This document shows positions 8,822-37,907 of a stretch of DNA of 50,038 bases, in pieces. The notes beneath the pieces were generated by a model. That model did not search any database. It saw nothing but the letters and a program-made list of their open reading frames with translations, and was not told the origin of the DNA. The first letter of the stretch is position 1. The number at the start of each line of letters is the position of its first letter. This DNA comes from Thermoplasmata archaeon (GTDB lineage Archaea; Thermoplasmatota; Thermoplasmata; RBG-16-68-12): the NCBI GenBank assembly GCA_041483635.1, contig JBGPGA010000003.1, forward strand, positions 1-50,038, given 5' to 3'. The position numbers and the translations under genes are program-made.

Positions 8822-8941
8822 GTTCCTACTTAACCTCCCGCCCCGCCGTTTCCTGTCGAGTGGAGATCCACCGGATCCCATGGAGGGAGACCGGCCCGCA
8901 TGGATTTCCATTGGAACCCGCGGGGTCCGTTTCGGCGATCC

Positions 8942-9213: not shown

Positions 9214-9618
9214 ATGGAACTCCCCGAAGAACTCCAGGCGCTCCAGCGCTTCCACGGGCACCTCGGCATCTACGTGACCCTGGGCCTGCGGATGGGGACC
9301 ATCGGGAAGCGGACCCTAGGGGCGTACAAGGGGCTCCGCGCGACCGTCCGGACCGTCCCCAAGCCGCCCATGATGTGCGTCGTCGACGGGGTGCAGTTCG
9401 CGAGCGCGTGCACGATGGGGAAGGGCAACATCTCGATCGAACCGGCCAGCGAACCCGGGGTGACGTTCGACAAGGAGGGCCGGCGGATCACGATCTCCCT
9501 GAAACCCGGGCTGCGGGAGACGATCGACAGGGAGATGTCCCACGAGACGGAGCTCGAACGCTCCATCCATTACTATCAGGTCCCCGAGGACGACCTCTTC
9601 GACGTGCGCTCCGAGTGA
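9214..9618 (+). CDS. FmdE-family protein (formylmethanofuran dehydrogenase subunit E-like)
   Basis: FHGHLG...GLRMG and CVVDGVQFASACTMGKGN. Confidence 0.88.
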   Translation: MELPEELQALQRFHGHLGIYVTLGLRMGTIGKRTLGAYKGLRATVRTVPKPPMMCVVDGVQFASACTMGKGNISIEPASEPGVTFDKEGRRITISLKPGLRETIDREMSHETELERSIHYYQVPEDDLFDVRSE

Positions 9619-19517: not shown

Positions 19518-20785
19518 TCCTGATCGTCCGGTTCCCGCTCGATCTGGGCGACCGGGCGACCCAGGCCTTCGGAGATCGGTTCGCCGTCCTCGACGATTCG
19601 TTCCCCACGGAGATACACGGTCCGCGGGAAGATCCCCTCCGTGCCCTCGAACGGCGTCCACTCGCATTTGTAGCGCACGCGCCGGGGTGTGATTTTCACG
19701 ACGGCCCTCGCATCGACCACCACGAGGTCCGCGTCCCTGCCAACCTCGATGCGTCCCTTCGGGATTCCGATGATCTCGGCGGGTCGTGCCGCCATGGAAT
19801 GGACAAGCCGCTCTAGGGTGAGGCTTTCCGAGCGAACCTGCCGGAGGAGCAGCGGGAAGGCAGTCGCGACGCCCGGAAGTCCGGACGGCGCCTCCTCGAA
19901 GCGTTCCTCCTTTTCCTCCCTTGTGTGCGGCGCGTGGTCCGACGCCACGATGTCGACGCGGCCGGCCGCGAAGGCGGCCCAGAGGGCCTTTCGCTCCTCC
20001 GGAGGTCGCAAGGGCGGGTTCACTTTGCCGAACGCCTTGAGCGGTCGCGCGGTGTCCAAGAGGAGGTGGTGGGGCGTGGCCTCCGTCGTCACGCCTACGG
20101 GGACCGCGTCGAGGGCGTCCACGCACGTGACGTGCGCGACATGGATCGCCGCCTCCCCCCGTAATTCAGCGAGCGTCTGGATCGCGCTGACCTCCGATTC
20201 TTTCGGGCGGGCCTGCGAATGACCCGCCAAGGTCGCGGGTTCTCCCTGTCGGAAGTACGCGGCGTCCTCCGCGTGGGCGACGACCAGCTTGCCGCTTTCC
20301 GCGGAGACGCGGAGGACCTCGCCCAGCGTCGCTTCGTCGATCTGCAACCCTCCTGTGCTCTCGGCCATGTAGACCTTGAACGCCGTCGCACCGGAGAGAT
20401 GAGAGACGGCGTCCTCGGATCGCGGAGCGGCGAAGAGTCCGTAGTCGACCGTCGCCCGAGTCCGGAGGCGGCTCCATTTCGACCTAAGGGCCCCCGCGGT
20501 GGTCACGGCCGGACGCGTGTTCGGCATGTCGACGACGGTCGTCACGCCCCCCAGGGCCGCGGAGCGCGTCCCGCTCGGGAAGTCCTCCTTCTCCGTGAGT
20601 CCGGGATCCCGCATGTGGACGTGCATGTCCACGCATCCCGGAAGGATTAGCGCGTCACCATGGTCCTCGACATCCCCGGATCCGAGAACACGCTTGATCG
20701 CCGCGATCTTCCCTTCCTCGTCGACACCAATTTCCAAAGGCTCGATCCGGCCGCGGTAGTACACTCGTCCCCGGATCACGCGCAT
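19511..20785 (-). CDS. pyrC: Dihydroorotase-family cyclic amidohydrolase
   Basis: PGCVDMHVHMRDPG, GGVTTVVDMPNT, EATPHH, KVNPPLR and SDHAPH. Confidence 0.82.
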   Translation of the reverse strand: MRVIRGRVYYRGRIEPLEIGVDEEGKIAAIKRVLGSGDVEDHGDALILPGCVDMHVHMRDPGLTEKEDFPSGTRSAALGGVTTVVDMPNTRPAVTTAGALRSKWSRLRTRATVDYGLFAAPRSEDAVSHLSGATAFKVYMAESTGGLQIDEATLGEVLRVSAESGKLVVAHAEDAAYFRQGEPATLAGHSQARPKESEVSAIQTLAELRGEAAIHVAHVTCVDALDAVPVGVTTEATPHHLLLDTARPLKAFGKVNPPLRPPEERKALWAAFAAGRVDIVASDHAPHTREEKEERFEEAPSGLPGVATAFPLLLRQVRSESLTLERLVHSMAARPAEIIGIPKGRIEVGRDADLVVVDARAVVKITPRRVRYKCEWTPFEGTEGIFPRTVYLRGERIVEDGEPISEGLGRPVAQIEREPDDQDH

Positions 20786-20789
20786 GGTC

Positions 20790-21401
20790 TCAGGCCAGCT
20801 TCCGTCGCACGATCGCGCCGCGGGGTTCGACTTCCTCGAAGATCTCCGTCTGGAACTTCTTCACGCGTGTCGAGTCCTCGAGCCACGCGTCCGGCATGAG
20901 GCCCGCCTTCATGCAGCATTCGGAGAGGAACGTCTCGGCGTCCATGTGATGCTCCGTCGCCACCTGGGGAAGGAACAGTCCGCGGTACGCTCCTTGCGCG
21001 ACGACGATGCCGTCCTCCCCGAGGCGAATCTGCTTGGGAAGGTCCCGTTGCTTCTTCACCTCGATGGGCTGCGGCGGGGTGAGCAGGCTGACCTCGACCA
21101 CAATGTGCGGGAGCTCTTCAGCCGTAAGGGGCGGGAACCGCGGGTCTTCCGCGGCTCCCTCCGCGCTCTTCACGACGGCCTTCAGGAGCGGGAAGAACGG
21201 CTCCGGGTAGCCGATGCAACCCCGTAGCTTCTCGAAGGTATCCTCGATCCCGTGCTTGCTCAGGGTGACGAAGGCGCCCGCTTTCTCCTCGAAGGTCTTC
21301 GGCACGACGAAAGAGCGCATCGCCCGGTCCTCGACGAATGCCTCGAGCGCCTCCCGGGCGATCTGCACCGCCAGGATTCCTTCCTGATCCGCGTAGCGCA
21401 T
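20790..21401 (-). CDS. AMMECR1-domain protein (TIGR00296 family)
   Basis: GAFVTL..LRGCIG, EDPRFPPL, VEVSLLT, GLFLPQVA and CMKAGL. Confidence 0.92.
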   Translation of the reverse strand: MRYADQEGILAVQIAREALEAFVEDRAMRSFVVPKTFEEKAGAFVTLSKHGIEDTFEKLRGCIGYPEPFFPLLKAVVKSAEGAAEDPRFPPLTAEELPHIVVEVSLLTPPQPIEVKKQRDLPKQIRLGEDGIVVAQGAYRGLFLPQVATEHHMDAETFLSECCMKAGLMPDAWLEDSTRVKKFQTEIFEEVEPRGAIVRRKLA

Positions 21402-21635
21402 CTTATCGGGGATGGGGTGTGCGTCAGTTAACGTTGTCGTACTGCGGCGACCGGCCACGTCGTCGGGGCCCGTCGCAAACCTTTTTACGACCCTGAAAAC
21501 GCAGCCGTCAGACCTTCTTGGCGGAGCGTCACCCACCCCGCTCGCCTGTCCCCACCATGCCCGCCCTCCGCGGCGGGCACTTTCCCAATTTTCTCGGGCG
21601 TGGTCATTATCTATCGATCGGGCCATCTTCGCAGT

Positions 21636-23639: not shown

Positions 23640-23864
23640 ATGTGTCTGGGGATTCCTGCCCGGGTCGTATCCGTCGACGGCACGCATGCCGTGCTCGATT
23701 TGAGGGGTAGGAAAGTCATCGCCGATGCCAGCGCAGTCTCCGTTTCTCCGGGGGACTATGTCGTGACCTACGCCGGGCTGATCGTCCAGCTGCTCTCCCC
23801 GACGGAGGCCGAGGAGACCCTGGCCCTCCTGGATCAGGTCGAGAGAAGCGCACCCAACCCGTGA
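23640..23864 (+). CDS. hypC: [NiFe]-hydrogenase maturation chaperone HypC
   Basis: N-terminal MCLGIPARVV, GDYVV..AG and EAEETL. Confidence 0.92.
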   Translation: MCLGIPARVVSVDGTHAVLDLRGRKVIADASAVSVSPGDYVVTYAGLIVQLLSPTEAEETLALLDQVERSAPNP

Positions 23865-23908
23865 TGCGGCAAGGACGCTCGGGGCGAGTCCCGCATAAGA
23901 ACAGGGTC

Positions 23909-24139
23909 TCACATGGGCGCTTCGATCATCGTGATCGTCTGAAGCGTCCCCGGTGCCTTCCGGATTCGATTCCTGATGACCCTCGCCATGGTGACCGTGT
24001 CCGGCGCCTGTAGGGTTAGGATGTAGTCGTAGTCGCCGAAGAGGAAGTTGATCTCTTCGAGGCCCGTGATGTCATGAAACGCGTCGAGCGCCTCCCTCTC
24101 CTTACCCGTGGCGACTTTCACAAGCACAAACGCGCGCAT
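23909..24139 (-). CDS. Stand-alone Lrp/AsnC ligand-binding domain protein
   Basis: MRAFVLVKVATGKE..LFGDYDYI..IRKAPGTLQTITMI; no HTH. Confidence 0.85.
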   Translation of the reverse strand: MRAFVLVKVATGKEREALDAFHDITGLEEINFLFGDYDYILTLQAPDTVTMARVIRNRIRKAPGTLQTITMIEAPM

Positions 24140-24331
24140 CCACGGCCCCGGCCCGGGACCGTCGAAGGGCTACAAAGAGGTGACGTTGCGTCAGAACGTA
24201 CATGTCGTCAGTCGCCGTCCTCGCCGGATGGACGATGGCTTCGATTTCTCTCCTCAAGGCCGGACAGATCCGATCACGGCCCGCTTCGCTCGGTCAGATT
24301 GAACAAGGCTAGAGCGGCTTCCCCGACCTGG

Positions 24332-24619
24332 TCACCAGAGAGGCGCTTCCTCTTCGAGCGCCGCAGGGCGCACCACCGGCGACTCCGCCCCGTTGTTTCC
24401 CTCGATGAACGTAGCGGTGCGCTCCACGCCGGGGAGATGGCGGATGTGATTAGTCATCACCCTGGCCATTTCCTGGGGCGTCTCCGCCTCGACTTCGACG
24501 AGGTACTCGTACTCGTTGAAGAGGTAGAACACGTGACGCACTTGCTGGATGGAGCCCAGATTGCTGAAAAACTCGGGTTCCTTGCCCGCAGACACGTTGA
24601 GGAGAACGATGCCCCACAT
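24332..24619 (-). CDS. Stand-alone Lrp/AsnC ligand-binding domain protein (paralog)
   Basis: MWGIVLLNVSAGKE..LFNEYEYLV..IRHLPGVERTATFI; no HTH. Confidence 0.82.
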   Translation of the reverse strand: MWGIVLLNVSAGKEPEFFSNLGSIQQVRHVFYLFNEYEYLVEVEAETPQEMARVMTNHIRHLPGVERTATFIEGNNGAESPVVRPAALEEEAPLW

Positions 24620-25333
24620 GGAAATCGCCTTTGACTGTGCTCGGCTGTGCCTTCCTCGGTGGTAGGGATGTTATGGCGCTCCGTAGGGAAGGATATTTCC
24701 AATATATTCCTGTACAAAAGCCGCTCGAAAAAAATACTGAATGTACTTTGTCCCTCGAGACCTGGCCGCTCCGCCTTGTAGTGCGTCCCGTTTGGAGGTT
24801 TGGCGCGGACACAACCTGGGTGCTGCGCCCATTCCCCTCCATGCAGAGCCGGGATCATGGAGTCGATGCGCCGTTGTAGTGCTGTTTTGACCGTGTATGC
24901 TTCTTCAAGGACCCGCATGGGCAGAAGTGGACCCCTGGCCGATTGTCGGTGGGCTCTCTGTATATTCTCTGTTGACGGATTGCTATGGTATATCTTTCCA
25001 TCGATAATGTATAGAGAACGATGAAAGCGCCTGTGGGTTGTCAGCATTTGACATGCCCGAGCGGACGGAGAGTCCGCGGGTCCGCCGCGGAAACTCGGGA
25101 TTGCAGGGCTTGCACGGCGCCCTCTCAGGGTCTCATCGAATCCGAGTCGCGGGGAAGGTCGTCGTTCGCGGGCCTGGGACGCCGTGTACCGCCGCGCGTC
25201 GCCCAAGGCGGCTCGAGCGCGGAGGCCGGCATGTCCCTCGTCCTGTTGTCGGGCGCTTCGTGGCACCGCGCGCCCGTTGGGCGCGGACGCCGTCCAAATC
25301 TTGTCTTCACATGTACCTGGAGAGTGATGAATC

Positions 25334-26581
25334 GTGTCTGCGGAAACGTTGCTTGTGAACGTCGAAGAGCGAGGGACGGCGGGCGACGCCACCGACGAAT
25401 TCATGCGCCGCATGCTCAAGCTCCCGATGGGGGACAAGCTCTTGAGCTGCATCCAGTGCGGGATGTGCAGCGGGTCCTGTCCCCTCGGCTATGCCATGGA
25501 TTACACCCCTCGGAAGATGATTGCAGCCTTGCGGGCGGGTCGGGTGGACGACCTGTACCGAAGCGAAGCCATCTGGCTCTGTGTTTCCTGCTTCAACTGC
25601 TCGTACCGGTGCCCGGTCGGCGTGCCCATCACGGACCGCCTGATCGCCGGCCTGCGGGAGGAGCTGCTCGGTCGGGGCGTCGGAGTGCCGCCGGAGCTCC
25701 AGGCAGCCTTCGAGAGGACATCGCGGTATGGCAATCCTTTCGGGGAGTCCGCCAAGAAGCGGGACGCGTGGACCAAAGACGCCGGGGTCGAGGTGCCGGT
25801 GCTCCAGGACGGGGACTCGGCGGAGGTCCTGTGGTGGGTGGGATGCTTCGGCTCCTACAACAAGAGGAATCAGAAGGACACGATCGCCCTCGCACGGATT
25901 CTCCACGCCCTCGATATCGACTTCGGCATCCTGGGGACGGATGAACGCTGCAGCGGCGACCTCCGCTGCACGAGCCAGGGAGAGGAGGGTCTGTTCGACG
26001 TCCTGTATCATCACAACACTGAGCAACTGGGGAAGAGGAAGTTCAAAGAGATCCTCGTGGGAGACCCTCACGCGTTCAACGCGTTCAACAAGGAATACCG
26101 CCGCCTGGGCACGCCGCTTGACGTCAGTCACTACACGCAGTTCCTGGCGGAGCGGGCGCCCGAGCTGAAACGGCGCGCCAAGAAGGAGATTACCGCCAAG
26201 GTCGCCTACCACGACTCGTGTTGCCTCGGCCGACGGAACGGGGAGTATGAGGCACCCAGGGTCCTCCTCGAGACCATCCCTGGCGTAAGGCTTGTCGAGA
26301 TGCCTCGGAACCGGGAGAACGCTCTCTGTTGCGGCGGCGGGGGAGGCGCGAACTGGCTGGACAGCTATGTCTGGCAGCGCACTCGCGTGCCCCTCGCGAT
26401 GCAACGTGTGCAGGAGGCTGCGAAGACGGGCGCGGAGATTCTCGCGATCTCCTGCCCCCTCGAGGTCCCGCGCTTCGAGGACGCCATCAAGACCTCAGGG
26501 CTCGAGGGACGTCTCCAGGTCCGAGAGATCTCCCACATGCTGGCCGAGGCCGTAGGGCTCAACGGAGGGGTCCGGCCGTGA
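25334..26581 (+). CDS. HdrD-like Fe-S oxidoreductase (HdrC-like 2[4Fe-4S] domain plus CCG domains)
   Basis: CIQCGMCSGSCP, CVSCFNCSYRCP, YHDSC.LGR and CCGGGGG. Confidence 0.88.
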   Translation: MSAETLLVNVEERGTAGDATDEFMRRMLKLPMGDKLLSCIQCGMCSGSCPLGYAMDYTPRKMIAALRAGRVDDLYRSEAIWLCVSCFNCSYRCPVGVPITDRLIAGLREELLGRGVGVPPELQAAFERTSRYGNPFGESAKKRDAWTKDAGVEVPVLQDGDSAEVLWWVGCFGSYNKRNQKDTIALARILHALDIDFGILGTDERCSGDLRCTSQGEEGLFDVLYHHNTEQLGKRKFKEILVGDPHAFNAFNKEYRRLGTPLDVSHYTQFLAERAPELKRRAKKEITAKVAYHDSCCLGRRNGEYEAPRVLLETIPGVRLVEMPRNRENALCCGGGGGANWLDSYVWQRTRVPLAMQRVQEAAKTGAEILAISCPLEVPRFEDAIKTSGLEGRLQVREISHMLAEAVGLNGGVRP

Positions 26582-27345
26582 AGATCGCGGTGGTCCTCCG
26601 GCAGGTCCCCGACGTCGTCGAGGAACTCGTGATCGCCGACGACGGACGCAGTCTGGCCGAAGACGAAGTTGTGTGCATCACGAACGAAGCCGACGAGCAC
26701 GCGTTGGAGGAGGCGCTCATCCTGAAATCCCGCCAGGGGGCAAGGGTGACCGCGGTGGCCGCAGGCGGGGACGAGGCGAAGGATGCCTTGGCGACCGCCG
26801 TCGCGAAGGGGGCAGACGAGGCGGTCTTGGTCGCCGTCCCCTTCGAGCATCGAGGAGACAACGTGCGACTGGCCTCGGTCCTCGGCCCGGCGATGAAGTC
26901 GGCGGGATACGACCTGATCCTCACGGGAGTGTGGGCGGCAGATCAGATGGACGCCGGCCTGGCCGGTCTCCTCGCGATGCATCTCTCTCTTCCGTATGTG
27001 GGCGGCGTGATGTCCGTATCCTTGGAGCCGAGCGGCGCGAAAGGGCTCGTCCGCAAGGAATTCCCCGGCGGTCGTCTTGGAGTGATGGAGGTCTCCCTTC
27101 CCGCGGTCCTCGGAATCCAGTCGGCCGAACAGCCTCCCCGCTATGTTCCGGTGAGCAAGGTCATGCAGGCCAAGCGCACCTTGCAGGTGAAAGAGCAGGG
27201 CGAGCCTTCTTTGGTGGTTCAGGGGATCCGAGCCTCGAAGCTGATCAAGTCGGGCTCGGCCGCGAGGGCGGAGATGCTTCCCGGGGACACGAAGCAGGTT
27301 GCGGAGCAGATCGTCCGCATCCTCCGGGAGCGTGGTATCGCATGA
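26578..27345 (+). CDS. etfB: Electron transfer flavoprotein beta subunit
   Basis: MKIAVVLRQVPD, NEADEHALEEAL, DLILTG and PRY. Confidence 0.92.
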   Translation: MKIAVVLRQVPDVVEELVIADDGRSLAEDEVVCITNEADEHALEEALILKSRQGARVTAVAAGGDEAKDALATAVAKGADEAVLVAVPFEHRGDNVRLASVLGPAMKSAGYDLILTGVWAADQMDAGLAGLLAMHLSLPYVGGVMSVSLEPSGAKGLVRKEFPGGRLGVMEVSLPAVLGIQSAEQPPRYVPVSKVMQAKRTLQVKEQGEPSLVVQGIRASKLIKSGSAARAEMLPGDTKQVAEQIVRILRERGIA

Positions 27346-28328
27346 TTCCGCGCGAGGTCGTGGTCGTGGCGGAACACATGGCGGGTGAACTCACCGACGT
27401 AACCCTCGAAATGCTCGCTTGTGCATACGAGCTCGCCCGCTCCGTTGGATGGCACGTCACGTGCCTCATCCTCGCGAGCGATCCAAAGCCCTTCCAGGCG
27501 CTGGCGCTCGCCGCGGACAAGGTCGTCGTTGTGACGGACCCCGGCCTCGGGTCGCCCAACCCCGCGGCCTACGCTCGGGTCCTCCCGCACGTCCTGAAGG
27601 ACCTGTCGGCACGGCTCGTGATCCTGGGGAACACGAGCATGGGCATCGACCTCGCCGGTCCCCTGTCCCACGACCTCGAGGCTCCTGCCATCAGCGGATG
27701 CGTCGGCCTCCGCGCAGAAGGAGATCGGATCATCGCAACAAGCCGGCTCTGCGGAGGCAAGCTCGTCGCGCATATCGAGCCGCAGGGTGGGTTGGCCATT
27801 GTGCTGCTAATGCCGGGGAGCTTCCACAGGGAGCTAGGCATGCGGGATGAAGTCCCGCCCATGGAGGTCCGCCCCTCGCCCGAGGCTCTCGATCTCCTTC
27901 CTGTCCGCTTCGTGGAGCTCATCGAGCCGAAGATGGAAGACGTCGATGTGAGGAAAGTCGAGGTCCTCATCGCCGCGGGCCGGGGGGTACAGTCCAAGGA
28001 CAACCTCGCACTCTTGGAGGCATTGGCGAGGGAGCTCGGGGGGGCCGTTTGCGCCACGAGGCCCGTGGTGGACCAAGGCTGGCTCCCGAGGACCCGTCAG
28101 GTGGGCCGGTCGGGGATGACCGTCAAGCCCCGGCTGTACCTGGCTCTCGGAGTCAGCGGCGCCCCGGAGCACACGGAAGGGATGAGAGGGTCGGGCCTCA
28201 TCGTCGCGGTGAACAAGGATCCGGAGGCGCCCATCTTCGACCTCGCCCACTACGGCGCGACGGTGGACCTGCTCGAGCTCGTCCCGATTCTGACGGAGAA
28301 GATTAAGGAAGCGAAGGGCGGACAATGA
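27342..28328 (+). CDS. etfA: Electron transfer flavoprotein alpha subunit
   Basis: AAGRGV, ATRPVVDQGW, QVGRSGMTVKP.LY.ALGVSGAPEH and AVNKDPEAPIF. Confidence 0.94.
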   Translation: MIPREVVVVAEHMAGELTDVTLEMLACAYELARSVGWHVTCLILASDPKPFQALALAADKVVVVTDPGLGSPNPAAYARVLPHVLKDLSARLVILGNTSMGIDLAGPLSHDLEAPAISGCVGLRAEGDRIIATSRLCGGKLVAHIEPQGGLAIVLLMPGSFHRELGMRDEVPPMEVRPSPEALDLLPVRFVELIEPKMEDVDVRKVEVLIAAGRGVQSKDNLALLEALARELGGAVCATRPVVDQGWLPRTRQVGRSGMTVKPRLYLALGVSGAPEHTEGMRGSGLIVAVNKDPEAPIFDLAHYGATVDLLELVPILTEKIKEAKGGQ

Positions 28329-30313
28329 ACCTCGATCAGATCGTCCTCACGGGAATCCTGGGCGTTTCCGCCTTCTTCTTCCTCGTGAGGGTCCTCACGA
28401 TCGTCCGAGGCGTCCGCAAGGGGATGCCGGAAACGTGGTGGGATCATTTGGGAGTCCGCATCAAGAACGTCGTGCTGGATGGCATCTTCCAGAGGAAGTT
28501 GTACCGCGAACGCCCCGCCGGGATTCTCCACGGCTTCATCTTCTGGGCCTTCGTGTTCCTCTTCTTCAGCGTCATCGAAATCGTCGTGGCAGGGTACATC
28601 CCCGGCTACACGCTTCCTCTCGGACCGCTGGACGGGCCCCTCTACCTCGGGCAGGATCTCGTGGCCGCACTCGGCATCGTGGGCGTGTTCATGGCGATTT
28701 ATCGCCGGACCGTCTCGAAACCCAGACGCCTCATGCACGAGGGGAACCGCGCGGCCATCGGCATGCTCCTCTTCATCTTGGCTATCTTGGTCTCGTTCCT
28801 CCTGTACAACGCGGCTCGGATCGTACAAGATTCGGCGGCGGCGATGGCGACTTGGAGGCCCGTCAGCGGGTTCCTGGCGGCGGTGTTGTCCGCCGTCGGA
28901 TGGGCCGGGCTCGCTCCTGGTCTGGAGTCCGCCATGTGGTGGGTCCACGTCCTCGTCCTGTTCACGTTCCTGGCCTGGTTCCCGTACACGAAGCACTCGC
29001 ACATCATCTTCGCGGTGTTCAACGTCTTCTTCCGGAAGCCGGAGCCCGCGGGGGCCATGCGTCCGGTGCCTGCGGAGCGGGCCAGTTCACCCGGGGCGAG
29101 CACGGTCCGCGACTTGACGTGGGTCTCCCTCCTGAACGCGTTCGCGTGCACGGAGTGCGGCCGCTGTACGGACAACTGCCCGGCCCACGAGAGCGGCACC
29201 GCGTTGGATCCAATGCACATGATGATGGGTCTACGAGATGCGGTCCTCTCCAAGGGGGTGACCACCTCACACTCAGCGGGTGTCGCCGCGGATGGAGGCG
29301 TCCTGTCGGGGGAAGACCTGTTCCTGGCAGTCCAGAGCCCGGAAGCCGTCTGGTCCTGCATGACATGCTACGCCTGCGTGGACGGCTGCCCCGTGTTCAA
29401 CAACCATCTGTCCAAGATCCTGGAGATGCGGCGTCAGCTCACGGCTCGGGGCGAGCTACGCCCTGGCCTGCAGGGTGTGCTCGAGAGCCTCTCTCGGTAT
29501 GGCAACTCCTTCAAGACCACGCCCAAGGCCCGGACGAGATGGGCGCGGTCCAGCTCCCTCGAGATCAAGGACGCTCGCAAGGAGCCCGTGGACGTCCTCT
29601 GGTTCGTGGGCGACTACGCTTCCTACGATGCTCGGTGCCAAGCCCTCACGGCCCGCACCGCGCGGGTCTTTGGCCGTGCGGGCATCAATCTCGGCCTTCT
29701 TCATGAAGGTGAATGGAACGCCGGAAACGACGTCCGGAGGATCGGGGAGGAAGGGCTGTTCGAGACTCTGCGGGATCACAACGCCGAAGCCATGCGCGCC
29801 TGCTCGTTCCACGACATTGTCACCACGGATCCGCACACCTACAACACTCTGAAGAACGAATATCCCCACGCCAACGGGGGACGGGTGCTCCACTACACCG
29901 AGATGCTCGACGAACTCATCGAGTCGGGTCAACTCCAGTTCTCGAAGCGGCTGCCATACCGGGTCACCTACCATGACCCGTGCTACCTGGGCCGCTACAA
30001 CGGGGTGTACGACGCGCCGCGCAGGGTCCTCGCGGCCCTTGGCGTGGAACTCGTCGAAATGCCCCGGAACCGATGGAAGAGCTTCTGTTGCGGAGCGGGC
30101 GGCGGGAGAATCTGGATGGAGGAGATCCCCGGCGAAACGCAGCGGCCCGCGGACATGCGGGTGAAGGAAGCCGCTGCCCTGGAGGGAGTGACGGTGCTCG
30201 CGGTCGCGTGTCCCAAGGACTACGTCATGTTCACGGACGCCGTGAAGGCCGCGGGGCTCGAAGGATCGCTTCAGATTCGCGACATCATCGAACTCGTGGA
30301 GGAAGCTCTATGA
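28325..30313 (+). CDS. Membrane-bound FadF/HdrF-type Fe-S oxidoreductase (NarI-like membrane domain, 4Fe-4S, CCG); putative ETF:quinone oxidoreductase
   Basis: About 5-6 N-terminal TM helices with His residues (GILHG, WWVHV, KHSH), CTECGRCTDNCP, CMTCYACVDGCP, YHDPCYLGRYN and CCGAGGG. Confidence 0.88.
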   Translation: MNLDQIVLTGILGVSAFFFLVRVLTIVRGVRKGMPETWWDHLGVRIKNVVLDGIFQRKLYRERPAGILHGFIFWAFVFLFFSVIEIVVAGYIPGYTLPLGPLDGPLYLGQDLVAALGIVGVFMAIYRRTVSKPRRLMHEGNRAAIGMLLFILAILVSFLLYNAARIVQDSAAAMATWRPVSGFLAAVLSAVGWAGLAPGLESAMWWVHVLVLFTFLAWFPYTKHSHIIFAVFNVFFRKPEPAGAMRPVPAERASSPGASTVRDLTWVSLLNAFACTECGRCTDNCPAHESGTALDPMHMMMGLRDAVLSKGVTTSHSAGVAADGGVLSGEDLFLAVQSPEAVWSCMTCYACVDGCPVFNNHLSKILEMRRQLTARGELRPGLQGVLESLSRYGNSFKTTPKARTRWARSSSLEIKDARKEPVDVLWFVGDYASYDARCQALTARTARVFGRAGINLGLLHEGEWNAGNDVRRIGEEGLFETLRDHNAEAMRACSFHDIVTTDPHTYNTLKNEYPHANGGRVLHYTEMLDELIESGQLQFSKRLPYRVTYHDPCYLGRYNGVYDAPRRVLAALGVELVEMPRNRWKSFCCGAGGGRIWMEEIPGETQRPADMRVKEAAALEGVTVLAVACPKDYVMFTDAVKAAGLEGSLQIRDIIELVEEAL

Positions 30314-32292
30314 CCGAGGAGCCGAGGATCGGCGTGTACATCTGCGACTGCGGGTTCAACATCGCCAGCGTCGTGAACGTGCCGGAGGTGGTGGACTATG
30401 CGAAGGGACTCAGGGGCGTGGCGGTCGCCCGCGAGTACAAGTACATGTGTTCCAGCCCCGGCCAGGAGATGATCCAGAAGGACATCCGGGAGATGGGGCT
30501 GAACCGCGTCGTCGTGGCCTCGTGCTCCCCCCATCTCCATGAGGCGACGTTCCGCCGCGCTGCAGAAGCCGGTGGAGCGAACCCGTTTCTCGTTCATATG
30601 GTGAATATCCGCGAGCAGGTGTCGTGGGTGACGAAGGATCATCGCATGGCCACCGAGAAGGCGAAAGCCCTCGTGGCCGCAGGCGTGGCTCGCGTCGCGT
30701 TTCACTCTCCCCTCGAGCGCCGATCCGTTCCGGTCCGGAGCGAGGTGCTCATCGTTGGAGGCGGGATCGCGGGGATTCAGGCGGCCCTCACCGCAGCGGA
30801 GGCGGGCCGCCACGTGTACCTCGTCGAGCGGGAGCCTTCCATCGGGGGGCACATGGCGAAGTTCGACAAGACCTTCCCGACTCTTGACTGTGCAGCCTGC
30901 ATCCTGACTCCGAAGATGACGGCGGTGAAGAACCACCCGAACATCACGCTCCTCTCTTACTCCGACGTGGTCGCCGTGGACGGCTTCGTGGGCAACTTCA
31001 AAGTGAAAGTCCGGCGCAAACCCCGGTACGTGGACGAGGTGAAGTGCGTGGGTTGCCTCGAGTGCATCGAGCGATGCGTCTACAAGACGGCGAAGTTCCC
31101 GAGCGAGTTCGACCTCGGGCTGGGGAAAAGGAAACCGATTTACGTCCCGTTCCCGCAGGCCATCCCCCTCGTGGCAGTCATTGACCCGGACACATGCATT
31201 GAGTTCAAGACAGGTCATTGCAAACAGACCTGCGTGGAGGCATGCGGGGACCGAGATGCGATCGACTTCAGCCAGAAGGAGCAGATCCTTGAACTCGACG
31301 TCGGAACGATCATCGTTGCGACAGGATTCCATGTCTTCGATGCCTCGCGGATGACGAATTACGGCTACGGGAAGTTGCCCGGAGTATACAATGCGTTGGA
31401 GGTGGAGCGTCTCGCAGCATCGAACGGCCCGACTGGCGGCGAGATCCTGCTCCGTGATGGCAAGCCGCCGAAAACTGTGGCGATCGTCCACTGCGTGGGC
31501 TCAAGGGACGAACACTACAACACATACTGCTCCAAGGTGTGCTGCATGTACTCCCTGAAGCTCGCTCACCTCGTGAAGGAGAGGACGGGAGCGGAGGTCT
31601 ACGACTTCTACATCGACATGCGCACGCCAGGCAAGGGCTACGAGGAGTTCTACCATCGTCTCATCGCGGAGAACATGCACCTCGTGAGGGGGAAGGTGGC
31701 ACTCGTCACGGATATCGCGGAGGCGCCGGCCGAGGAGGGCAAGCTCGTTGTCGTCGCGGAAGACACCCTCTTGGGCGTCATCCGCCGCGTGCCCGTGGAC
31801 ATGGTGGTTCTCAGCGTGGCCATCGAGCCTCAGCCCGATCGGGAAGAGGTGCGTCGGATGCTCAACCTGTCCTGCAGCACGGAGGGTTTCTTCTTGGAGA
31901 AGCATCCGAAACTGGCCCCTGTATCCACGATGAGCGATGGGGTGTTCATCGCGGGAACATGCCAAGGCCCCAAGGACATCCCCGAGACCGTGGCGCAGGC
32001 CGAGGCGGCCGCCGCGGAAGCCATCGCGCTCACCTCGAAGGGCTCCATCTTGCTCGATCCCAATCTCGCCTCCATCGAAGAAGATCTCTGCTCAGGCTGC
32101 CAGATCTGCCTCCCGCTGTGTCCCTATAATGCGATTGAGCTCGAGCGGGAGAAGATGGTCGCCCGGATCAGTGACGTCCTGTGCAAGGGATGCGGAGTGT
32201 GCGTCGCTGCCTGTCCGAGTGGGGCTATTTCTCAGAAGATGTTCGAGGACGATCAACTCATCCAGGAACTGGAGGGGGTGCTCTCCCGATGA
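30310..32292 (+). CDS. hdrA: Heterodisulfide reductase subunit A-like flavoprotein
   Basis: RIGVYICDCG.NI, VVVASCSP, GGGIAG, DKTFPTLDCAACILTPKM, CVGSRD, YCSKVCCMYSLK, GPKDIPETV and a C-terminal ferredoxin domain. Confidence 0.95.
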   Translation: MTEEPRIGVYICDCGFNIASVVNVPEVVDYAKGLRGVAVAREYKYMCSSPGQEMIQKDIREMGLNRVVVASCSPHLHEATFRRAAEAGGANPFLVHMVNIREQVSWVTKDHRMATEKAKALVAAGVARVAFHSPLERRSVPVRSEVLIVGGGIAGIQAALTAAEAGRHVYLVEREPSIGGHMAKFDKTFPTLDCAACILTPKMTAVKNHPNITLLSYSDVVAVDGFVGNFKVKVRRKPRYVDEVKCVGCLECIERCVYKTAKFPSEFDLGLGKRKPIYVPFPQAIPLVAVIDPDTCIEFKTGHCKQTCVEACGDRDAIDFSQKEQILELDVGTIIVATGFHVFDASRMTNYGYGKLPGVYNALEVERLAASNGPTGGEILLRDGKPPKTVAIVHCVGSRDEHYNTYCSKVCCMYSLKLAHLVKERTGAEVYDFYIDMRTPGKGYEEFYHRLIAENMHLVRGKVALVTDIAEAPAEEGKLVVVAEDTLLGVIRRVPVDMVVLSVAIEPQPDREEVRRMLNLSCSTEGFFLEKHPKLAPVSTMSDGVFIAGTCQGPKDIPETVAQAEAAAAEAIALTSKGSILLDPNLASIEEDLCSGCQICLPLCPYNAIELEREKMVARISDVLCKGCGVCVAACPSGAISQKMFEDDQLIQELEGVLSR

Positions 32293-32720
32293 TGCAGATG
32301 CAGAAGCAGGAATTCGAACCGAGGATCGTCGCCTTCGTGTGTAACTGGTGCACCTACATCGCAGCCGATGCGGCCGGGGTCGCTCGCGCTCGATACGCCC
32401 CGAACGTGCGGCTGATCCGCACGATGTGCTCGGGTCGCGTGGACCCCCAGTTCGTCCTCACCGCCTTCCAGAAGGGTGCGGACGGGGTGCTGCTCTGCGG
32501 TTGCCATCCACGGGATTGCCACTACAGCTCTGGGAACTACAAGACCCTCCGGAGGTACACGTTGCTGAGGAAGATGCTCTCCCAGATGGGCTTCGAGGAC
32601 GACCGTCTCCGTCTCGAGTGGATCTCCGCGTCGGAGTCCGAGAAGTTCCGCAGGGTCGTCGAGGACATGACCGAGCGAGTGCGCAAGCTCGGTCCTCTTG
32701 ACCTAGATGGAGGTGCGTGA
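32289..32720 (+). CDS. mvhD: Hydrogenase [2Fe-2S] subunit MvhD
   Basis: IVAFVCNWCTY.AAD, MCSGRVDP, GCHPRDCHY and EWISASE. Confidence 0.95.
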   Translation: MMQMQKQEFEPRIVAFVCNWCTYIAADAAGVARARYAPNVRLIRTMCSGRVDPQFVLTAFQKGADGVLLCGCHPRDCHYSSGNYKTLRRYTLLRKMLSQMGFEDDRLRLEWISASESEKFRRVVEDMTERVRKLGPLDLDGGA

Positions 32721-33701
32721 ATGGCGGCCAAGCCGAAGGTGGCCTTCTACTGGCTGGCTTCGTGCGGCGGATGTGAAGAAGCGGTGGTGGATCTCGCCGA
32801 GGGAATCCTGGACGTCGTGGGCGCGGTCGACATCGTGTTCTGGCCCGTCGCGCTCGATTTCAAGGTCTCCGATGTCGAGGCTTTGCCAGATGGGAGCATC
32901 GCGGCGAGTTTCATCAACGGGGCGGTCCGCCTTTCCGAGCAGGAAGAGATGGCTCGCCTTCTACGCCGGAAATCGAAGTACGTGATTGCATTTGGAAGTT
33001 GCTCCCATCTGGGAGGTATCCCTGGACTCGCGAACCTTTGGGACCGGCAATCGATCTTCGATTGGTACTACCACAGGGCTCCCAGCCTGGAGGACGGAAG
33101 CTCTCAGGAACCACGGGAGAGGGTCGAGGTCCCCGAAGGGATCCTCGAGCTCCCCACCTTCTGGGACACCGTGAAGGCGCTGGACCAGGTGATCGACGTG
33201 GACTACTATCTCCCGGGCTGTCCTCCCACGCCGAAGCTCATCGGAAACGCGGTGAACGCGCTCCTCCATGGCGAGTTGCCCCCGAAAGGCTCCGTCTTGG
33301 CGGGCCCCCGGGCCCTGTGCCACGAGTGCCCCTTGAACGAGAGCAAGCCGGAGAAGCTCCTGATCAAGGAGGTGAAGCGAATCCATCTCACGAAGGTGGA
33401 CCCCGAGAAGTGTCTCCTTGCACAGGGAATCCTGTGCCTCGGCCCTGTGACTCGCGGAGGATGCGAGGCTCTCTGCGTGAGGGGGGTCATGCCTTGCACT
33501 GGATGTTTCGGCCCAGCGGACGAGGTGCGGGACCAGGGCGCGAAAGGTATTTCCTTTCTATCCTCCATCCTCGATTTCGACGAAGAGGCGGACATCCAGC
33601 GGGTCATGGAGAGCATCCCGGATCCGGTGGGGACGTTTTACCGGTACGCCCTGCCACGGTCCATCCTGATGCGGTCCCGGGGGGTGAAGCCGCATGGCTA
33701 G
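32721..33701 (+). CDS. mvhG: Group 3c [NiFe]-hydrogenase small subunit
   Basis: ASCGGC, AFGSC..GGIPGLAN, PGCPP and CL..QG.LCLGPVTRGGC...CTGCFG. Confidence 0.93.
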   Translation: MAAKPKVAFYWLASCGGCEEAVVDLAEGILDVVGAVDIVFWPVALDFKVSDVEALPDGSIAASFINGAVRLSEQEEMARLLRRKSKYVIAFGSCSHLGGIPGLANLWDRQSIFDWYYHRAPSLEDGSSQEPRERVEVPEGILELPTFWDTVKALDQVIDVDYYLPGCPPTPKLIGNAVNALLHGELPPKGSVLAGPRALCHECPLNESKPEKLLIKEVKRIHLTKVDPEKCLLAQGILCLGPVTRGGCEALCVRGVMPCTGCFGPADEVRDQGAKGISFLSSILDFDEEADIQRVMESIPDPVGTFYRYALPRSILMRSRGVKPHG

Positions 33702-35160
33702 CCAGGTCACGATCAACCCCATCACGCGCTTGGAGGGCCATGGGAAGATCACGATTTTCCTCGATGGGAAGGGAGAGGTTTCGCGGGCGTACTTCCAGGT
33801 CCCGGAACTTCGCGGTTTCGAGAATTTCCTCGTGGGCCGGCAGGCCGAGGACACGCCCCAGATCACGTCTCGCATTTGCGGAGTCTGTCCGACGGCCCAT
33901 CACACTGCTGCGACGAAAGCCTTGGACGATCTGTTCAAGGTGGATCCGCCGCCGGCCGCGAAGATGATCCGGGAGATGCTGTACAGCGTCTTCATGATGG
34001 AGGATCACGCCCTCCACCTGTTCTTCCTGGGCGGCCCGGACTTTGTGGTGGGACCCACCGCGCCCAAGGCGGAGCGCAACGTTCTGGGCGTGATTCAGAA
34101 GGCGGGCTTGGAGATTGGCAAGCGGGTCATCGCCATGCGGAAGGAGCTGCGCGGGATTCTCACGGAGCTCGGTGGGAAGACGATCCATCCCGTGTTCGGC
34201 CTCCCGGGGGGCGTCGCGAAGGCCGTCACGCCGGATATGCAGACGCGCTTCAAAGAGACCGCGACTCGCGCCCTGGAGTTCGCCCAGTTCTGCGAGCAGC
34301 TGTTCAAGGATGTGGTCCTCGAGAACCCCGCCTACGTGAAGATGATTACTTCGGATGCCTACACGCACCGCACGCATTACATGGGCCTTGTGGACTCGAA
34401 GCTGCATGAGAACTTCTACGATGGGCAGCTACGGGTGGTGAGTCCGTCGGGCAACGAGATCGCGCGATTCCCGGCACGGCAGTACATGGATTACATCGCG
34501 GAACACACGGAACCCTGGACCTACGTGAAGTTCCCCTTCCTGAAGAAGATCGGCTGGAAGGGATTCGTGGACGGCGAGGACAGCGGGGTCTACAGCGTGG
34601 CGCCGCTGGCCCGGCTCAACGCCTGCACCGGCATGGCGACGCCGCGGGCGGCGTGGCTCTACGACAAGTACTTCGAGACCCTGGGAGGGAGACCCGTCCA
34701 CCACACGCTCGCGAACCACTGGGCGCGAGTGATTGAGATTGTGTACGCGGCCGAGAGATTCCAGGAGCTTGTCCACGATCCGGAGATCCTCGATCCTAAC
34801 GTCCGGACTTTACCCACCGAGACCCCGAAGGAAGGCGTCGGTGTCGTCGAGGCTCCCCGGGGAGTCTTGATTCATCACTACACGAGCGACGACCGCGGCA
34901 TCCTGACCTCCGCGAACCTGATTGTGGCGACCCAGCACAACGCAGCGCGAATCGCCATGTCGGTGGACAAGGCGGCTCGGGGCGTGATTCACAAGGGCGT
35001 CGTGGACGACGGCATCCTGAACCAGGTGGAGATGGCGTTCCGCGCCTACGATCCGTGCCATGCGTGTGCGACCCACTCGTTGCCGGGCCACATGCCCCTT
35101 TCCGTTCAGGTGTTTGACGCGGACGGCCGCATGATCCAAGAGATTCGGCGGGATGGCTAG
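33694..35160 (+). CDS. mvhA: Group 3c [NiFe]-hydrogenase large subunit
   Basis: PITRLEGHGKI, L1 RICGVCPTAH, EAPRG and L2 RAYDPCHACATH followed by a cleavable C-terminal extension. Confidence 0.95.
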   Translation: MASQVTINPITRLEGHGKITIFLDGKGEVSRAYFQVPELRGFENFLVGRQAEDTPQITSRICGVCPTAHHTAATKALDDLFKVDPPPAAKMIREMLYSVFMMEDHALHLFFLGGPDFVVGPTAPKAERNVLGVIQKAGLEIGKRVIAMRKELRGILTELGGKTIHPVFGLPGGVAKAVTPDMQTRFKETATRALEFAQFCEQLFKDVVLENPAYVKMITSDAYTHRTHYMGLVDSKLHENFYDGQLRVVSPSGNEIARFPARQYMDYIAEHTEPWTYVKFPFLKKIGWKGFVDGEDSGVYSVAPLARLNACTGMATPRAAWLYDKYFETLGGRPVHHTLANHWARVIEIVYAAERFQELVHDPEILDPNVRTLPTETPKEGVGVVEAPRGVLIHHYTSDDRGILTSANLIVATQHNAARIAMSVDKAARGVIHKGVVDDGILNQVEMAFRAYDPCHACATHSLPGHMPLSVQVFDADGRMIQEIRRDG

Positions 35161-35162
35161 CC

Positions 35163-35657
35163 ATGGGCCTCGTCATCCTCGGCCTGGGCAATGACCTGCT
35201 CGGCGACGATGGCATCGGCCTGCTCGCGGCGGAGGCGCTCCGCGAGTGTGAGGGTCCCCAGGTGTCGGTCCGAACTACCGCCCAGTCCGGGCTGTATCTC
35301 ATCGAATACCTGCAGGGCTTCGAGGATGCGATCGTGGTGGATTCCGTCGCGGGCGACCATCCGGGTGTCATCCGCGAGTTGCACGGTGGGGACGTGCGAG
35401 CGGTCTCCGTTCCGTCCGCGCACTACGTCGGCCTGCCCGAGGCGCTCGCCCTCGCACGTGCGTCCGGGCTCAGCGTCCCTCGCCGCCTGCGCATCTTTGG
35501 GGTTGAAATTGACATCGCCCAGCAGATCGGATCCGCGCCGAGTGCGCCGATTGTTGCGTCCCTTCCCCGCCTCGTGGCCGAGGTCGTCGGCGCCGCGCGG
35601 GAGTGGGGCTACACCGTCCATGTCCCCTCTCTCTCGGAGGCTGCCTCCGATGCATGA
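35163..35657 (+). CDS. Hydrogenase maturation endopeptidase
   Basis: LGLGNDLLGDDGIG, IVVDS and SAH. Confidence 0.9.
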   Translation: MGLVILGLGNDLLGDDGIGLLAAEALRECEGPQVSVRTTAQSGLYLIEYLQGFEDAIVVDSVAGDHPGVIRELHGGDVRAVSVPSAHYVGLPEALALARASGLSVPRRLRIFGVEIDIAQQIGSAPSAPIVASLPRLVAEVVGAAREWGYTVHVPSLSEAASDA

Positions 35658-36060
35658 GTATGGTCTCATGCAGGATGTCGTGAAGCTCGCGGTCGAGACC
35701 TGTCGCAGGGACGGCGATCGGGAGGTCGTGCGGGTGCGAATCGAGGTCGGGGAGTTCGCCGTCGCCTCGCGGGAATCCCTCCAGACCGCGTACGAAATCC
35801 TGACGCGGGGGACACCCCTGGAGGGTTCGTCGCTCGAAATCGCGGAGGTGCCGGGGCATGCGGTGTGCGAGGCCTGCGGATTCGCGGGCTCCGCCGCGGA
35901 CCTGGGAGACGAGGTCAGCGAGCCCCCTGCGCTGATACTCTGTCCTCACTGTGGTTCTCCCCTCCTTGTCACTGCGGGCGCGGGCATCGCGCTCGTTGAC
36001 GTGCAACTTGAGGATCGCGGGCACCTGGAGGCAGGCACACCGGTTCGCGGAGGGCGATAA
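35650..36060 (+). CDS. hypA: Ni metallochaperone HypA
   Basis: N-terminal MHE, CEACG and CPHCGS. Confidence 0.92.
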   Translation: MHEYGLMQDVVKLAVETCRRDGDREVVRVRIEVGEFAVASRESLQTAYEILTRGTPLEGSSLEIAEVPGHAVCEACGFAGSAADLGDEVSEPPALILCPHCGSPLLVTAGAGIALVDVQLEDRGHLEAGTPVRGGR

Positions 36061-37158: not shown

Positions 37159-37406
37159 ACGATGTCTCGCGGTCGGGAAGCTGCTGACACTGGTTGCGCC
37201 AACGAGCTCTTCAGTGTGATTCATCGTTCTTCGTGCGGCAAGATTCACCAAGCGACTTCGGCGGTGGAGGTAACGGAACGAAAGGAACCGCGATAGCGCG
37301 GTCTACGGGCGATGCATTCGCGAATTCACATCCCGAATGGGCGTCAAGGAGGCAGAATCACGCTGGGTCCTCCTCGCCCCGCGGCGAGCGCCGGCTGGAG
37401 GCGCTG

Positions 37407-37907
37407 ATGCTCGTGGCCTCGGAGCTCCGCGTCTTGGTGTTGGGCCTTGGAGATCCCACACAAGGCAACGAAAGCATCGGTGTGCGTCTGGCCCGCTCCC
37501 TCGTCACGGCCTTCGAGGACGCGGACGTCCGTCCCGCGTCTGAGTTCGCGGGCTTCTCCGAGATCCTCCACGACTACGACCTCGTCATCGTCTTGACGTC
37601 CTTGTCGTACTGCGGCAACGTGGGCCTCGTGGCCCTCGGGAGTCCCGATGCGCTCGGGGACGGATGGGGGGTTCGCCCGGCCCATACCGACGCCTTTGCG
37701 AGCGCGCTCTCCTATGCCCGCCTCATGGGGCACACGCTCCCCCGGATCGAGGTTGTCAACGTATGTGTGGGCGCGGAGGAGTGGCCGGAGGGGGGCCTGA
37801 GTCCAACGGTCGCCTCGATGTACCCGGGGATTCTTGGCCGCGTCCGTGCCCTGGTGAAGCAGGTTATCCGCGAGGCGGGCCATCCAATCCAGCCCTTCGG
37901 CAGATGA
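37407..37907 (+). CDS. Divergent hydrogenase maturation protease-like protein
   Basis: VLVLGLGDPTQGNESIG resembles LGLGNxLxGDDGxG; YDLVIVL; GLSPTV near the C-terminus. Confidence 0.6.
   Translation: MLVASELRVLVLGLGDPTQGNESIGVRLARSLVTAFEDADVRPASEFAGFSEILHDYDLVIVLTSLSYCGNVGLVALGSPDALGDGWGVRPAHTDAFASALSYARLMGHTLPRIEVVNVCVGAEEWPEGGLSPTVASMYPGILGRVRALVKQVIREAGHPIQPFGR

Follow-up and report, generated by a model that had tools for sequence, protein, structure and literature searches.

The stretch analysed here, referred to as the window, comprises 50,038 nucleotides of a Thermoplasmata archaeon genome (GenBank assembly GCA_041483635.1, contig JBGPGA010000003.1, positions 1 to 50,038 of the forward strand). 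Positions 25334-36060 hold ten genes on the + strand, each overlapping, abutting or lying 2 nt from the next. They join a soluble HdrD-like protein (g1), the two subunits of an electron-transferring flavoprotein (ETF; g2 and g3) and a membrane iron-sulfur protein of the EMO/EtfD type (g4) to HdrA (g5), the hydrogenase subunits MvhDGA (g6-g8), a maturation protease (g9) and HypA (g10). The operon may encode a single electron-bifurcating hydrogenase system in which the high-potential outlet is from ETF to the membrane and not a heterodisulfide, an interpretation for which the chances are judged to be about even. All the parts are of known families, and there is a published analogue of the proposed wiring; the combination is apparently undescribed, and a search of the full texts of papers gave no account of hdrA-mvhDGA linked to an etfAB-EMO block. 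The features of the operon are the following.

24960-25333, + strand: untranslated region before g1, AT-rich and TATA-like at 24960-25020, with GGAG 11 nt ahead of the GTG start of g1.
25334-26581 (stop codon included), + strand: g1, soluble HdrD-like protein (Pfam CCG 6e-20, Fer4_17/Fer4_8).
26578-27345, + strand: g2, etfB, ETF small subunit (Pfam ETF 4e-21).
27342-28328, + strand: g3, etfA, ETF large subunit with the FAD domain, 328 aa (Pfam ETF_alpha 9e-31, ETF 2e-24).
28325-30313, + strand: g4, membrane EMO/EtfD/HdrF/FadF-like iron-sulfur protein, 662 aa (N-terminal NarI-like transmembrane domain, Fer4 dicluster, CCG).
30310-32292, + strand: g5, hdrA, 660 aa (NCBIfam HdrA2 814.8 bits; Pfam FAD/Rossmann, Fer4).
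32289-32720, + strand: g6, mvhD, [2Fe-2S] adaptor (Pfam FlpD 7.6e-54 over the full profile; FlpD/MvhD 181 bits).
32721-33701, + strand: g7, mvhG, [NiFe] hydrogenase small subunit (NCBIfam VhuG 1e-57, 195.6 bits; Pfam Oxidored_q6).
33694-35160, + strand: g8, mvhA, [NiFe] hydrogenase large subunit of the F420-non-reducing type (NCBIfam VhuA 2e-115, 385.7 bits).
35163-35657, + strand: g9, hydrogenase maturation endopeptidase of the HycI type (TIGR00072 1.8e-24, exceeding the cut-off).
35650-36060, + strand: g10, hypA, HypA nickel metallochaperone (Pfam HypA 3.8e-23).

The family calls for all ten genes agree between Pfam and NCBIfam, and neither hdrB nor hdrC is among them. The order is translationally coupled: five consecutive junctions, g1/g2 through g5/g6, are 4-nt overlaps of start and stop, and they span the boundary between the etf and hdr parts. 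The etfA stop falls 4 nt into the start of g4, so that g4 is encoded adjacent to etfAB. Further downstream g6 and g7 abut, g7/g8 and g9/g10 share 8 nt, and the gap between g8 and g9 is 2 nt. An earlier reading of this DNA, made from the sequence only, had described a tightly packed ten-gene cluster on one strand, and both the content and the coordinates that it gave are correct.

The gene order is conserved, so that the synteny search proposed in the sequence-only reading does not refute that reading: the order recurs in 10 other species genomes of the host order and in metagenome loci. In 11 of the order's 79 genomes, distributed over three families, hdrA comes immediately after a g4 gene. 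Six of these are from the window's genus (G000, G012, G076, G005, G017 and G024); the others are G062, from a second genus of the same family, G027, from a second family, and G048, G049 and G050, from a third. With the ten window proteins as tblastn queries, the order g1-etfB-etfA-g4-hdrA-mvhD-mvhG-mvhA-protease was found in all nine relatives whose region was retrieved completely, with hypA following the protease in six of the nine; the contig of G050 stops inside hdrA. Because the order recurs in 10 other species genomes, the arrangement is no assembly accident. The host genome is a fragmented metagenome-assembled genome (2.36 Mb, 227 contigs, 89% complete, 3% contamination), and such fragmentation and contamination could produce a chimera of assembly or binning, but this explanation of the juxtaposition is hardly tenable. 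The order is found not only in the other species but also in many independent metagenome contigs, and DNA contigs from a second sample (run X2) cross the junctions, including that between g4 and hdrA. The run X2 contigs tile most of the operon, leaving gaps at 28486-28970 and 31875-32554; the pieces listed show one difference and cross most gene junctions. The DNA holding the stretch is from sediment, soil and wetland samples.

The slot upstream of hdrA is filled differently in four other genomes of the order, G075, G022 and G015 from the window's genus and G033 from the second family. These have hdrC-hdrB directly upstream of hdrA, encoding an HdrC-like protein of 224 aa and an HdrB of 292 aa, which among the four genomes are 64-89% and 67-85% identical, respectively; the HdrB of G075 matches TIGR03288 with 185.5 bits. 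In three of the four the locus continues after hdrA with orthologous mvhDGA-protease-hypA, and the G033 contig ends in hdrA. The g1-etfBA-g4 block thus occupies the exact slot of hdrCB in the congeners. The MvhA tree follows taxonomy, the family's hdrCB-type and ETF-type rows grouping at 99/98, whereas the HdrA tree splits by partner, with the hdrCB-type HdrA in a clade of its own (99/99, branch 0.49); on these grounds the hydrogenase looks vertically inherited while the Hdr arm differs. Both trees were built from rows with >70% coverage and are midpoint-rooted, and they are therefore silent on whether the ETF or the hdrCB form came first.

Canonical hdrBC was also looked for elsewhere in the host genome, another check named in the sequence-only reading, and the outcome does not refute that reading. 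No stand-alone hdrC was found in the 89%-complete genome, all six TIGR03290 matches lying inside HdrD-like fusion open reading frames (ORFs), and the sole HdrB-like gene, which scores 198 bits where the cut-off is 345, is on contig C46 beside a second hdrA. When the congeners' HdrC and HdrB were compared with the host genome they matched only the N-terminus of g1 (34%), an HdrD-like ORF on contig C10 and the HdrB-like protein of C46; the last is 36% identical to the congeners' HdrB, and an ortholog of their hdrB was not found at this completeness. In the locus on C46 (L001, 8695-12957) the second hdrA, 49% identical to that of the operon, is preceded by the HdrB-like gene and followed by mvhD and by an HdrD-like gene that runs off the contig. 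This locus adjoins LarA-like, Ldh_2 and DAO genes and may be a lactate- or hydroxyacid-linked Hdr system. The earlier suggestion that the HdrBC arm has been replaced by an HdrD-like fusion and ETF is strengthened by the hdrCB pair found at that very slot in four genomes. Its other half, that the system is without hdrBC, is true of some lineages only, because bacterial-type metagenome versions of the cluster carry hdrCB as well.

An additional copy of part of the block was seen in G027, upstream of that genome's own operon. Positions 18040-19900 of its contig C5 (L019) hold an extra etfB-etfA and the first 175 aa of g4, followed by a TAG stop. This copy is 81-84% identical to the window genes and the G027 operon copies are 59-70% identical; it may have been transferred recently, be left over from a duplication or result from mis-assembly.

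The protein that would connect HdrA to ETF is g1. It consists of an N-terminal HdrC-like 2x[4Fe-4S] domain and a non-cubane-cluster (CCG) domain resembling that of EtfD/EMO. In a sequence search of the PDB, residues 77-385 matched EtfD (9ojn_A) at 1.6e-55, compared with 2.5e-17 for HdrC over residues 12-137. An AlphaFold2 model from 33 sequences (mean pLDDT 85.8) had EtfD 9ojn as its top Foldseek match (E 4.5e-21, TMq 0.77, 28% identity), with HdrB next (2.7e-9, 19%). Invariant in the 33 sequences are the eight cubane-cluster cysteines C39, C42, C45, C49, C83, C86, C89 and C93 together with C296, C332, C333 and C374. Sequence and model both indicate that g1 is related to that part of EMO/EtfD on which ETF docks, but is soluble and provided with an HdrC-like entry domain, and that it is closer to EMO/EtfD than to HdrBC.

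On g1 also turns an explanation in which the operon combines two uncoupled but co-regulated functions, EtfAB and g4 being an ETF:quinone route for acyl-CoA oxidation and HdrA-MvhADG with g1 a disulfide reductase that acts on a thiol/disulfide carrier. The HdrC-like N-terminus of g1, by its identity to the congeners' HdrC and by its PDB match, agrees with such a reductase, and so does the presence of hdrCB in the bacterial-type clusters; furthermore, a heterodisulfide of unspecified identity is proposed for related Thermoplasmata Hdr/Mvh in the available text of a preprint (10.1101/2020.03.09.984617). This explanation is nevertheless considered unlikely, since the CCG part of g1 is much closer to EtfD/EMO, where the clusters are described in the available part of the source as shielded electron-transfer sites, than to HdrB. 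The etf genes moreover lie between g1 and hdrA with 4-nt overlaps and in an order kept in three families, the g1-etfBA-g4 block moves as a unit in other Hdr-like contexts, and DsrC was not found in the 89%-complete genome.

In a single coupled system the electrons would reach the membrane through g4. This protein matches M. smegmatis EtfD (9ojn_A) over its full length (E 8.5e-76), with a transmembrane part at 9-311, aligned with EtfD 17-337, and a soluble part at 335-657. Its His69 and His226 align with His78 and His241, given as the heme b ligands of EtfD in the available text of PMC13083937, and both are invariant in 14 sequences. Two cubane-cluster motifs are present, with C275/278/281/285 and C345/348/351/355 invariant in the same number of sequences. 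In the CCG domain only C553, C588, C589 and C629 are kept; the first repeat is free of cysteine and the second ends in ACPKD. The cysteine-free first repeat sets the operon-type g4 apart from EtfD and from paralogs in the same genomes, and g4 of the DPHT type was found in 64 of 80 pattern-selected metagenome loci. As a hallmark of hdrA-linked g4 the cysteine-free repeat was rejected, since of 50 judgeable loci 24 have it without hdrA, and since it also turns up where the gene order is g4-etfBA.

When the operon-type g4 proteins of G017, G062, G048 and G049 were aligned with those of G000, G012, G005, G024 and G027, the soluble domain was near-identical and the membrane domain was of two quite different types, one of them longer by an insertion of about 13 residues. 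An exchange of the membrane domain is thereby suggested.

The ETF encoded by g2 and g3 is probably non-bifurcating, judging from its sequence. The solved chain nearest to g2 is that of Methylophilus W3A1 (1o94_C, 5.8e-26), compared with 1e-19 for the bifurcating C. difficile protein (5ol2_B). Where 5ol2_B has GRQAIDGDTAQ, g2 has GVWAADQMDAG, a difference that may set g2 apart from bifurcating EtfB. Bifurcating (group 2) EtfB binds a second FAD and NADH in place of AMP. The large subunit g3 is without an N-terminal ferredoxin domain. As EtfB looks non-bifurcating, HdrA is the only bifurcating flavin left. The HdrA of the operon, g5, matches HdrA2 at residues 6-657 with 814.8 bits, short of the equivalog cut-off of 1100, and the HdrA profile with 595 bits; it is a full-length HdrA with FAD and iron-sulfur clusters, presumably the bifurcating flavoprotein. 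The hydrogenase subunits are likewise below the equivalog cut-offs, that for VhuA being 800 against the score of g8, and g7 falling under the cut-off of VhuG. The translation of g8 contains RICGVCPTAHH and DPCHACATH, presumably the large-subunit motifs of a [NiFe] hydrogenase, followed by a C-terminal tail of 27 aa.

The host is no methanogen, as the sequence-only reading had supposed: a search for MCR_alpha (mcrA) in the order's 79 species genomes, that of the window among them, found none, while the control search was positive in two methanogens. Evidence of a CoM/CoB (coenzyme M/coenzyme B) system was not found in the host genome. The operon encodes the sole [NiFe] hydrogenase of the group 1-3 type found there, and the genome also has two large subunits of the complex-I 49-kDa/group-4-like type.

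From these parts we infer a physical complex, an electron path with its direction and the nature of the acceptor as a quinone. MvhAG would oxidise H2, and MvhD would hand the electrons to the FAD of HdrA, where bifurcation would take place. The low-potential electron would pass to ferredoxin via the ferredoxin domains of HdrA, and the high-potential electron would exit through g1, standing in for HdrBC. By g1 the FAD of the dedicated, non-bifurcating EtfAB would be reduced, and the membrane protein g4 would re-oxidise EtfAB and pass the electrons via heme b to a quinone. Overall, the path would amount to 2 H2 + Fd(ox) + Q -> Fd(red) + QH2 + 2 H+, where Fd is ferredoxin and Q the quinone. The proposal is more than a guess from adjacency because the same outlet is shown in a preprint on a benzoyl-CoA reductase, treated below, and because in four metagenome loci (L065, L066, L082 and L086) a short HdrA-like gene is likewise followed by g1-etfBA-g4.

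The machine may be reversible, and Hdr/Mvh-type enzymes are so in principle. In the opposite direction it would work by confurcation: electrons from acyl-CoA dehydrogenases, arriving via ETF and g1, would be combined at HdrA with those of reduced ferredoxin to form H2, and the host would be a fermenter of fatty or amino acids that vents its beta-oxidation electrons. The six acyl-CoA dehydrogenase genes of the host genome are in keeping with this, as are the position of Mvh as the only soluble-type [NiFe] hydrogenase and the sediment, soil and wetland origin of the DNA, a plausible habitat. In one metagenome locus (L070, 8726-14668) what comes after the mvhG-like gene is not mvhA but another etfA-like gene, a methylase-like ORF and an acyl-CoA dehydrogenase of 583 aa, so that a dehydrogenase and a second etfA-like gene are found inside the cluster. 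Thermodynamically the reverse direction is marginal: with about +16 mV for ETF and about -450 mV for ferredoxin, values taken from the available parts of the sources, the mean by our own estimate is about -220 mV, and H2 formation would therefore need H2 well below 1 Pa. A Pfam scan of the window genes found no acyl-CoA dehydrogenase within or beside the operon, and the quinone-side outlet of g4, together with a separate etfBA-EMO pair on contig C1 that could serve beta-oxidation, fits uptake of H2 better. Operation in this direction is accordingly regarded as rather improbable.

Several observations weigh against the proposed route from H2 through ETF to a quinone. The metagenome loci that extend the association were chosen by patterns in g4 and are not independent of one another. 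The bacterial-type loci retain hdrC and hdrB beside the ETF module, so that g1 need not be the partner of HdrA everywhere. The cysteines of the first CCG repeat are variable in g1 and absent in g4; each protein keeps about four to five in one repeat only, which leaves their cluster content uncertain. A second etfBA with a g4 paralog (33-36% identity), that is, an EMO-like pair, is present on contig C1, and the function of ETF/EMO as such is therefore not dependent on the operon. Finally, MqnA/D of the futalosine pathway were not found in the 89%-complete host genome, and its seven UbiA-family matches are non-specific; at this completeness the non-detection of MqnA/D, as of DsrC, does not demonstrate absence.

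The distribution of the arrangement was examined in two further samples. Among 401 genomes of the class no relative of g4 with >45% identity was found outside the host order. As this sample showed the host order only, the spread beyond it depends on metagenome contigs alone. For the metagenome scan nine operon-type g4 proteins were aligned and the patterns [VI]TTDPHTY and NTLKNEYP applied, and the best 80 loci of >598 matching stretches were retained. The sequence downstream of g4 is long enough to judge in 61 of the 80. Since the loci were selected by the g4 pattern, the counts are not natural frequencies. A g4-like gene has hdrA downstream in 27 of the 61, in 18 directly (<250 nt), in six with a g1-like gene between and in three after about 5 kb; the G+C content of the loci is 0.37-0.70. 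In an HdrA tree of 33 rows with >90% HdrA coverage, from which nine loci with partial hdrA were excluded, L037, L038 and L039 of the 27 fall in the host order and the remainder form separate groups.

The ETF/EMO module is thus widely associated with HdrA-Mvh. By Pfam, the flanks of long loci show bacterial-type features (Cache histidine kinase, hybrid kinase, response regulator, FtsH, Ser/Thr kinases, 23S-rRNA intervening-sequence protein), and the gene order varies. L043 and L094 have response regulator-hdrC-hdrB-etfB-etfA-g4-g1like-hdrA-mvhDGA-protease, L041 and L063 have g1-etfBA-g4 followed by a histidine kinase, a histidine kinase/response regulator and a response regulator and then hdrC-hdrB-hdrA-mvhDGA, and L101 has hdrC/B-g1-etfBA-g4-hdrA-mvhD. 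Look-alikes of g1 in the Atlas are from Thermoproteota, Chloroflexota and Thermodesulfobacteriota and are leads only. It is tentatively proposed, with somewhat less than an even chance of being right, that these clusters of uncultured archaea and bacteria represent an additional class of bifurcating Mvh-HdrA hydrogenase, an H2:ferredoxin/quinone oxidoreductase that works via a soluble EtfD-like adaptor and ETF.

In the bacterial-type locus L054 (G+C 0.37) a tandem-domain DsrC-like gene and hypA are found just downstream of mvhA, at 20387-21572. This hints that some versions of the cluster may still use a disulfide carrier of the DsrC type.

Two soil metatranscriptome runs from one study contain short contigs that are 90-99% alike across the operon, and contigs from these RNA libraries bridge g1/etfB, etfB/etfA and g4/hdrA. 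The flanks of the operon are covered too and RNA libraries can contain DNA, so that the contigs give a weak hint of co-transcription.

The surroundings of the operon are archaeal, with genes for an MCM helicase with an intein, NMD3, NAC, aIF5A, Nop56/58 and RtcB, and the G+C content of the window is 65%. The AT-rich TATA-like stretch upstream was noted by direct reading of the sequence about 320 nt from g1 and may act as a promoter; an Rfam scan of 23800-25500 gave zero matches. A hypC gene (23640-23864, + strand) lies 1.5 kb upstream of the operon, and between the two are two small genes on the - strand (23909-24139 and 24332-24619) that encode an Lrp/AsnC ligand-binding domain only. Downstream, an ORF of 237 aa at 37194-37907 (+ strand) has no Pfam match and is 26% identical to g9 over 160 aa (pair E 0.004); it may be a second, divergent protease-like gene. 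Further away, the 1288-aa MCM helicase gene at 5045-8911 (- strand) is split by a LAGLIDADG intein (Pfam MCM, Intein_splicing, LAGLIDADG_3), and a gene for a 1719-aa subtilase-family protein with fibronectin-III-like repeats (9624-14783, - strand) adjoins a small FmdE-domain gene (9214-9618, + strand).

To our knowledge the role of Hdr/Mvh in non-methanogens has long been open, no heterodisulfide substrate being known in them. The operon offers a testable answer for one widespread form, in which the high-potential electron would pass to ETF and on to the quinone pool and not to a disulfide. If this is true, a non-methanogen would gain reduced ferredoxin from trace H2 by coupling its oxidation to respiration; run backwards, the system would let beta-oxidation electrons leave as H2 without a reverse loop driven by the proton-motive force. 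Natural controls exist within the genus, where the hydrogenase is orthologous between the species that carry hdrCB and those that carry the ETF module, so that the two forms can readily be compared. Confirmation would add H2 to the donors that use an outlet from HdrA through an HdrBC fusion and ETF to EMO, so far shown only for benzoyl-CoA reductase, and would change models of H2 metabolism for abundant sediment and wetland Thermoplasmata and for similar bacteria.

Among known systems, MvhADG-HdrABC (PDB 5ODC) is the H2:CoM-S-S-CoB/ferredoxin oxidoreductase of hydrogenotrophic methanogens. The operon resembles it in having MvhA, MvhG, MvhD and a full-length HdrA in the gene order of that system, together with a protease and HypA, and congeners in the host order have the canonical hdrC-hdrB-hdrA-mvhDGA form. 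It differs in that HdrB and HdrC are not encoded in the operon and mcr not in the host, the high-potential arm consisting of g1, EtfBA and the membrane protein. In the available text of the preprint 10.1101/2020.03.09.984617, on non-methanogenic Thermoplasmata, hdr/mvh and bcd/etf are listed separately.

EMO is known as a membrane ETF:(methyl)menaquinone oxidoreductase from S. aciditrophicus, according to the available part of PMC8805022, and the naming and etf linkage of related proteins are documented, in the accessible text of PMC2702500 and PMC5109826, by HdrF3-etfBA of D. autotrophicum and FadF of D. multivorans. In the EMO-ETF complex described in the available text of bioRxiv 10.64898/2026.08.18.745454, ETF docks at the non-cubane-cluster domain of EMO with its flavin at the clusters; in that text Mvh is unmentioned and HdrA appears only within the name HdrABC. 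Like EMO/EtfD, g4 has the heme b histidines and both cubane motifs, matches EtfD throughout and is encoded directly after etfBA. Unlike it, g4 lacks cysteine in the first CCG repeat, and in the second ACPKD stands where EMO/EtfD has CxxC; the gene is also coupled in translation to hdrA-mvhDGA, and an extra, soluble copy of the iron-sulfur part, g1, accompanies it.

The g1-etfBA-g4 module is also found in Hdr-like clusters of the sulfur-oxidation type. In L066 the module is surrounded, by Pfam, by two DsrE genes and by GcvH, HdrC-like, HdrB-like, lipoate ligase and radical-SAM genes, and the protein that occupies the B3 slot of this locus shares 40% identity with g1 along the whole of g1 (E 8e-95). 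We take the arrangement in L065, L066, L082 and L086 to be the type II sulfur-oxidising sHdr, shdrC1B1AHB3-etfAB-emo. Like type II sHdr, the operon has a B3-type HdrCB fusion followed by etfAB and emo, in the order g1-etfB-etfA-g4. It differs in the length of HdrA, 660 aa against about 355 aa for the short form, in the presence of MvhDGA and in the proposed electron source, H2 instead of sulfane sulfur; the families of DsrE/TusA, GcvH/LbpA, lipoate assembly and shdrC1B1 were not found among the window genes scanned with Pfam. In Cao 2018 (eLife) etfAB and emo are unmentioned.

The wiring proposed here has its closest analogue in the class II benzoyl-CoA reductase, Bam[(BC)2DEFGHI]2. According to the available text of bioRxiv 10.64898/2026.04.10.717634, the high-potential electron passes there from the HdrA-type BamE to BamD, an HdrBC fusion with non-cubane clusters; the ETF (BamOP) docks on BamD and is reduced, and its re-oxidation by EMO with menaquinone is proposed by the authors. 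The operon would share with Bam an HdrA-type flavoprotein, an MvhD-type adaptor, an HdrBC fusion, ETF and an EMO outlet. Its input is a [NiFe] hydrogenase, where that of Bam is the NADH/ferredoxin-confurcating BamGHI, and its HdrA is a single unit, where that of Bam is a fused double HdrA. The low-potential outlet is presumably free ferredoxin, compared with the tungsten benzoyl-CoA reductase of Bam.

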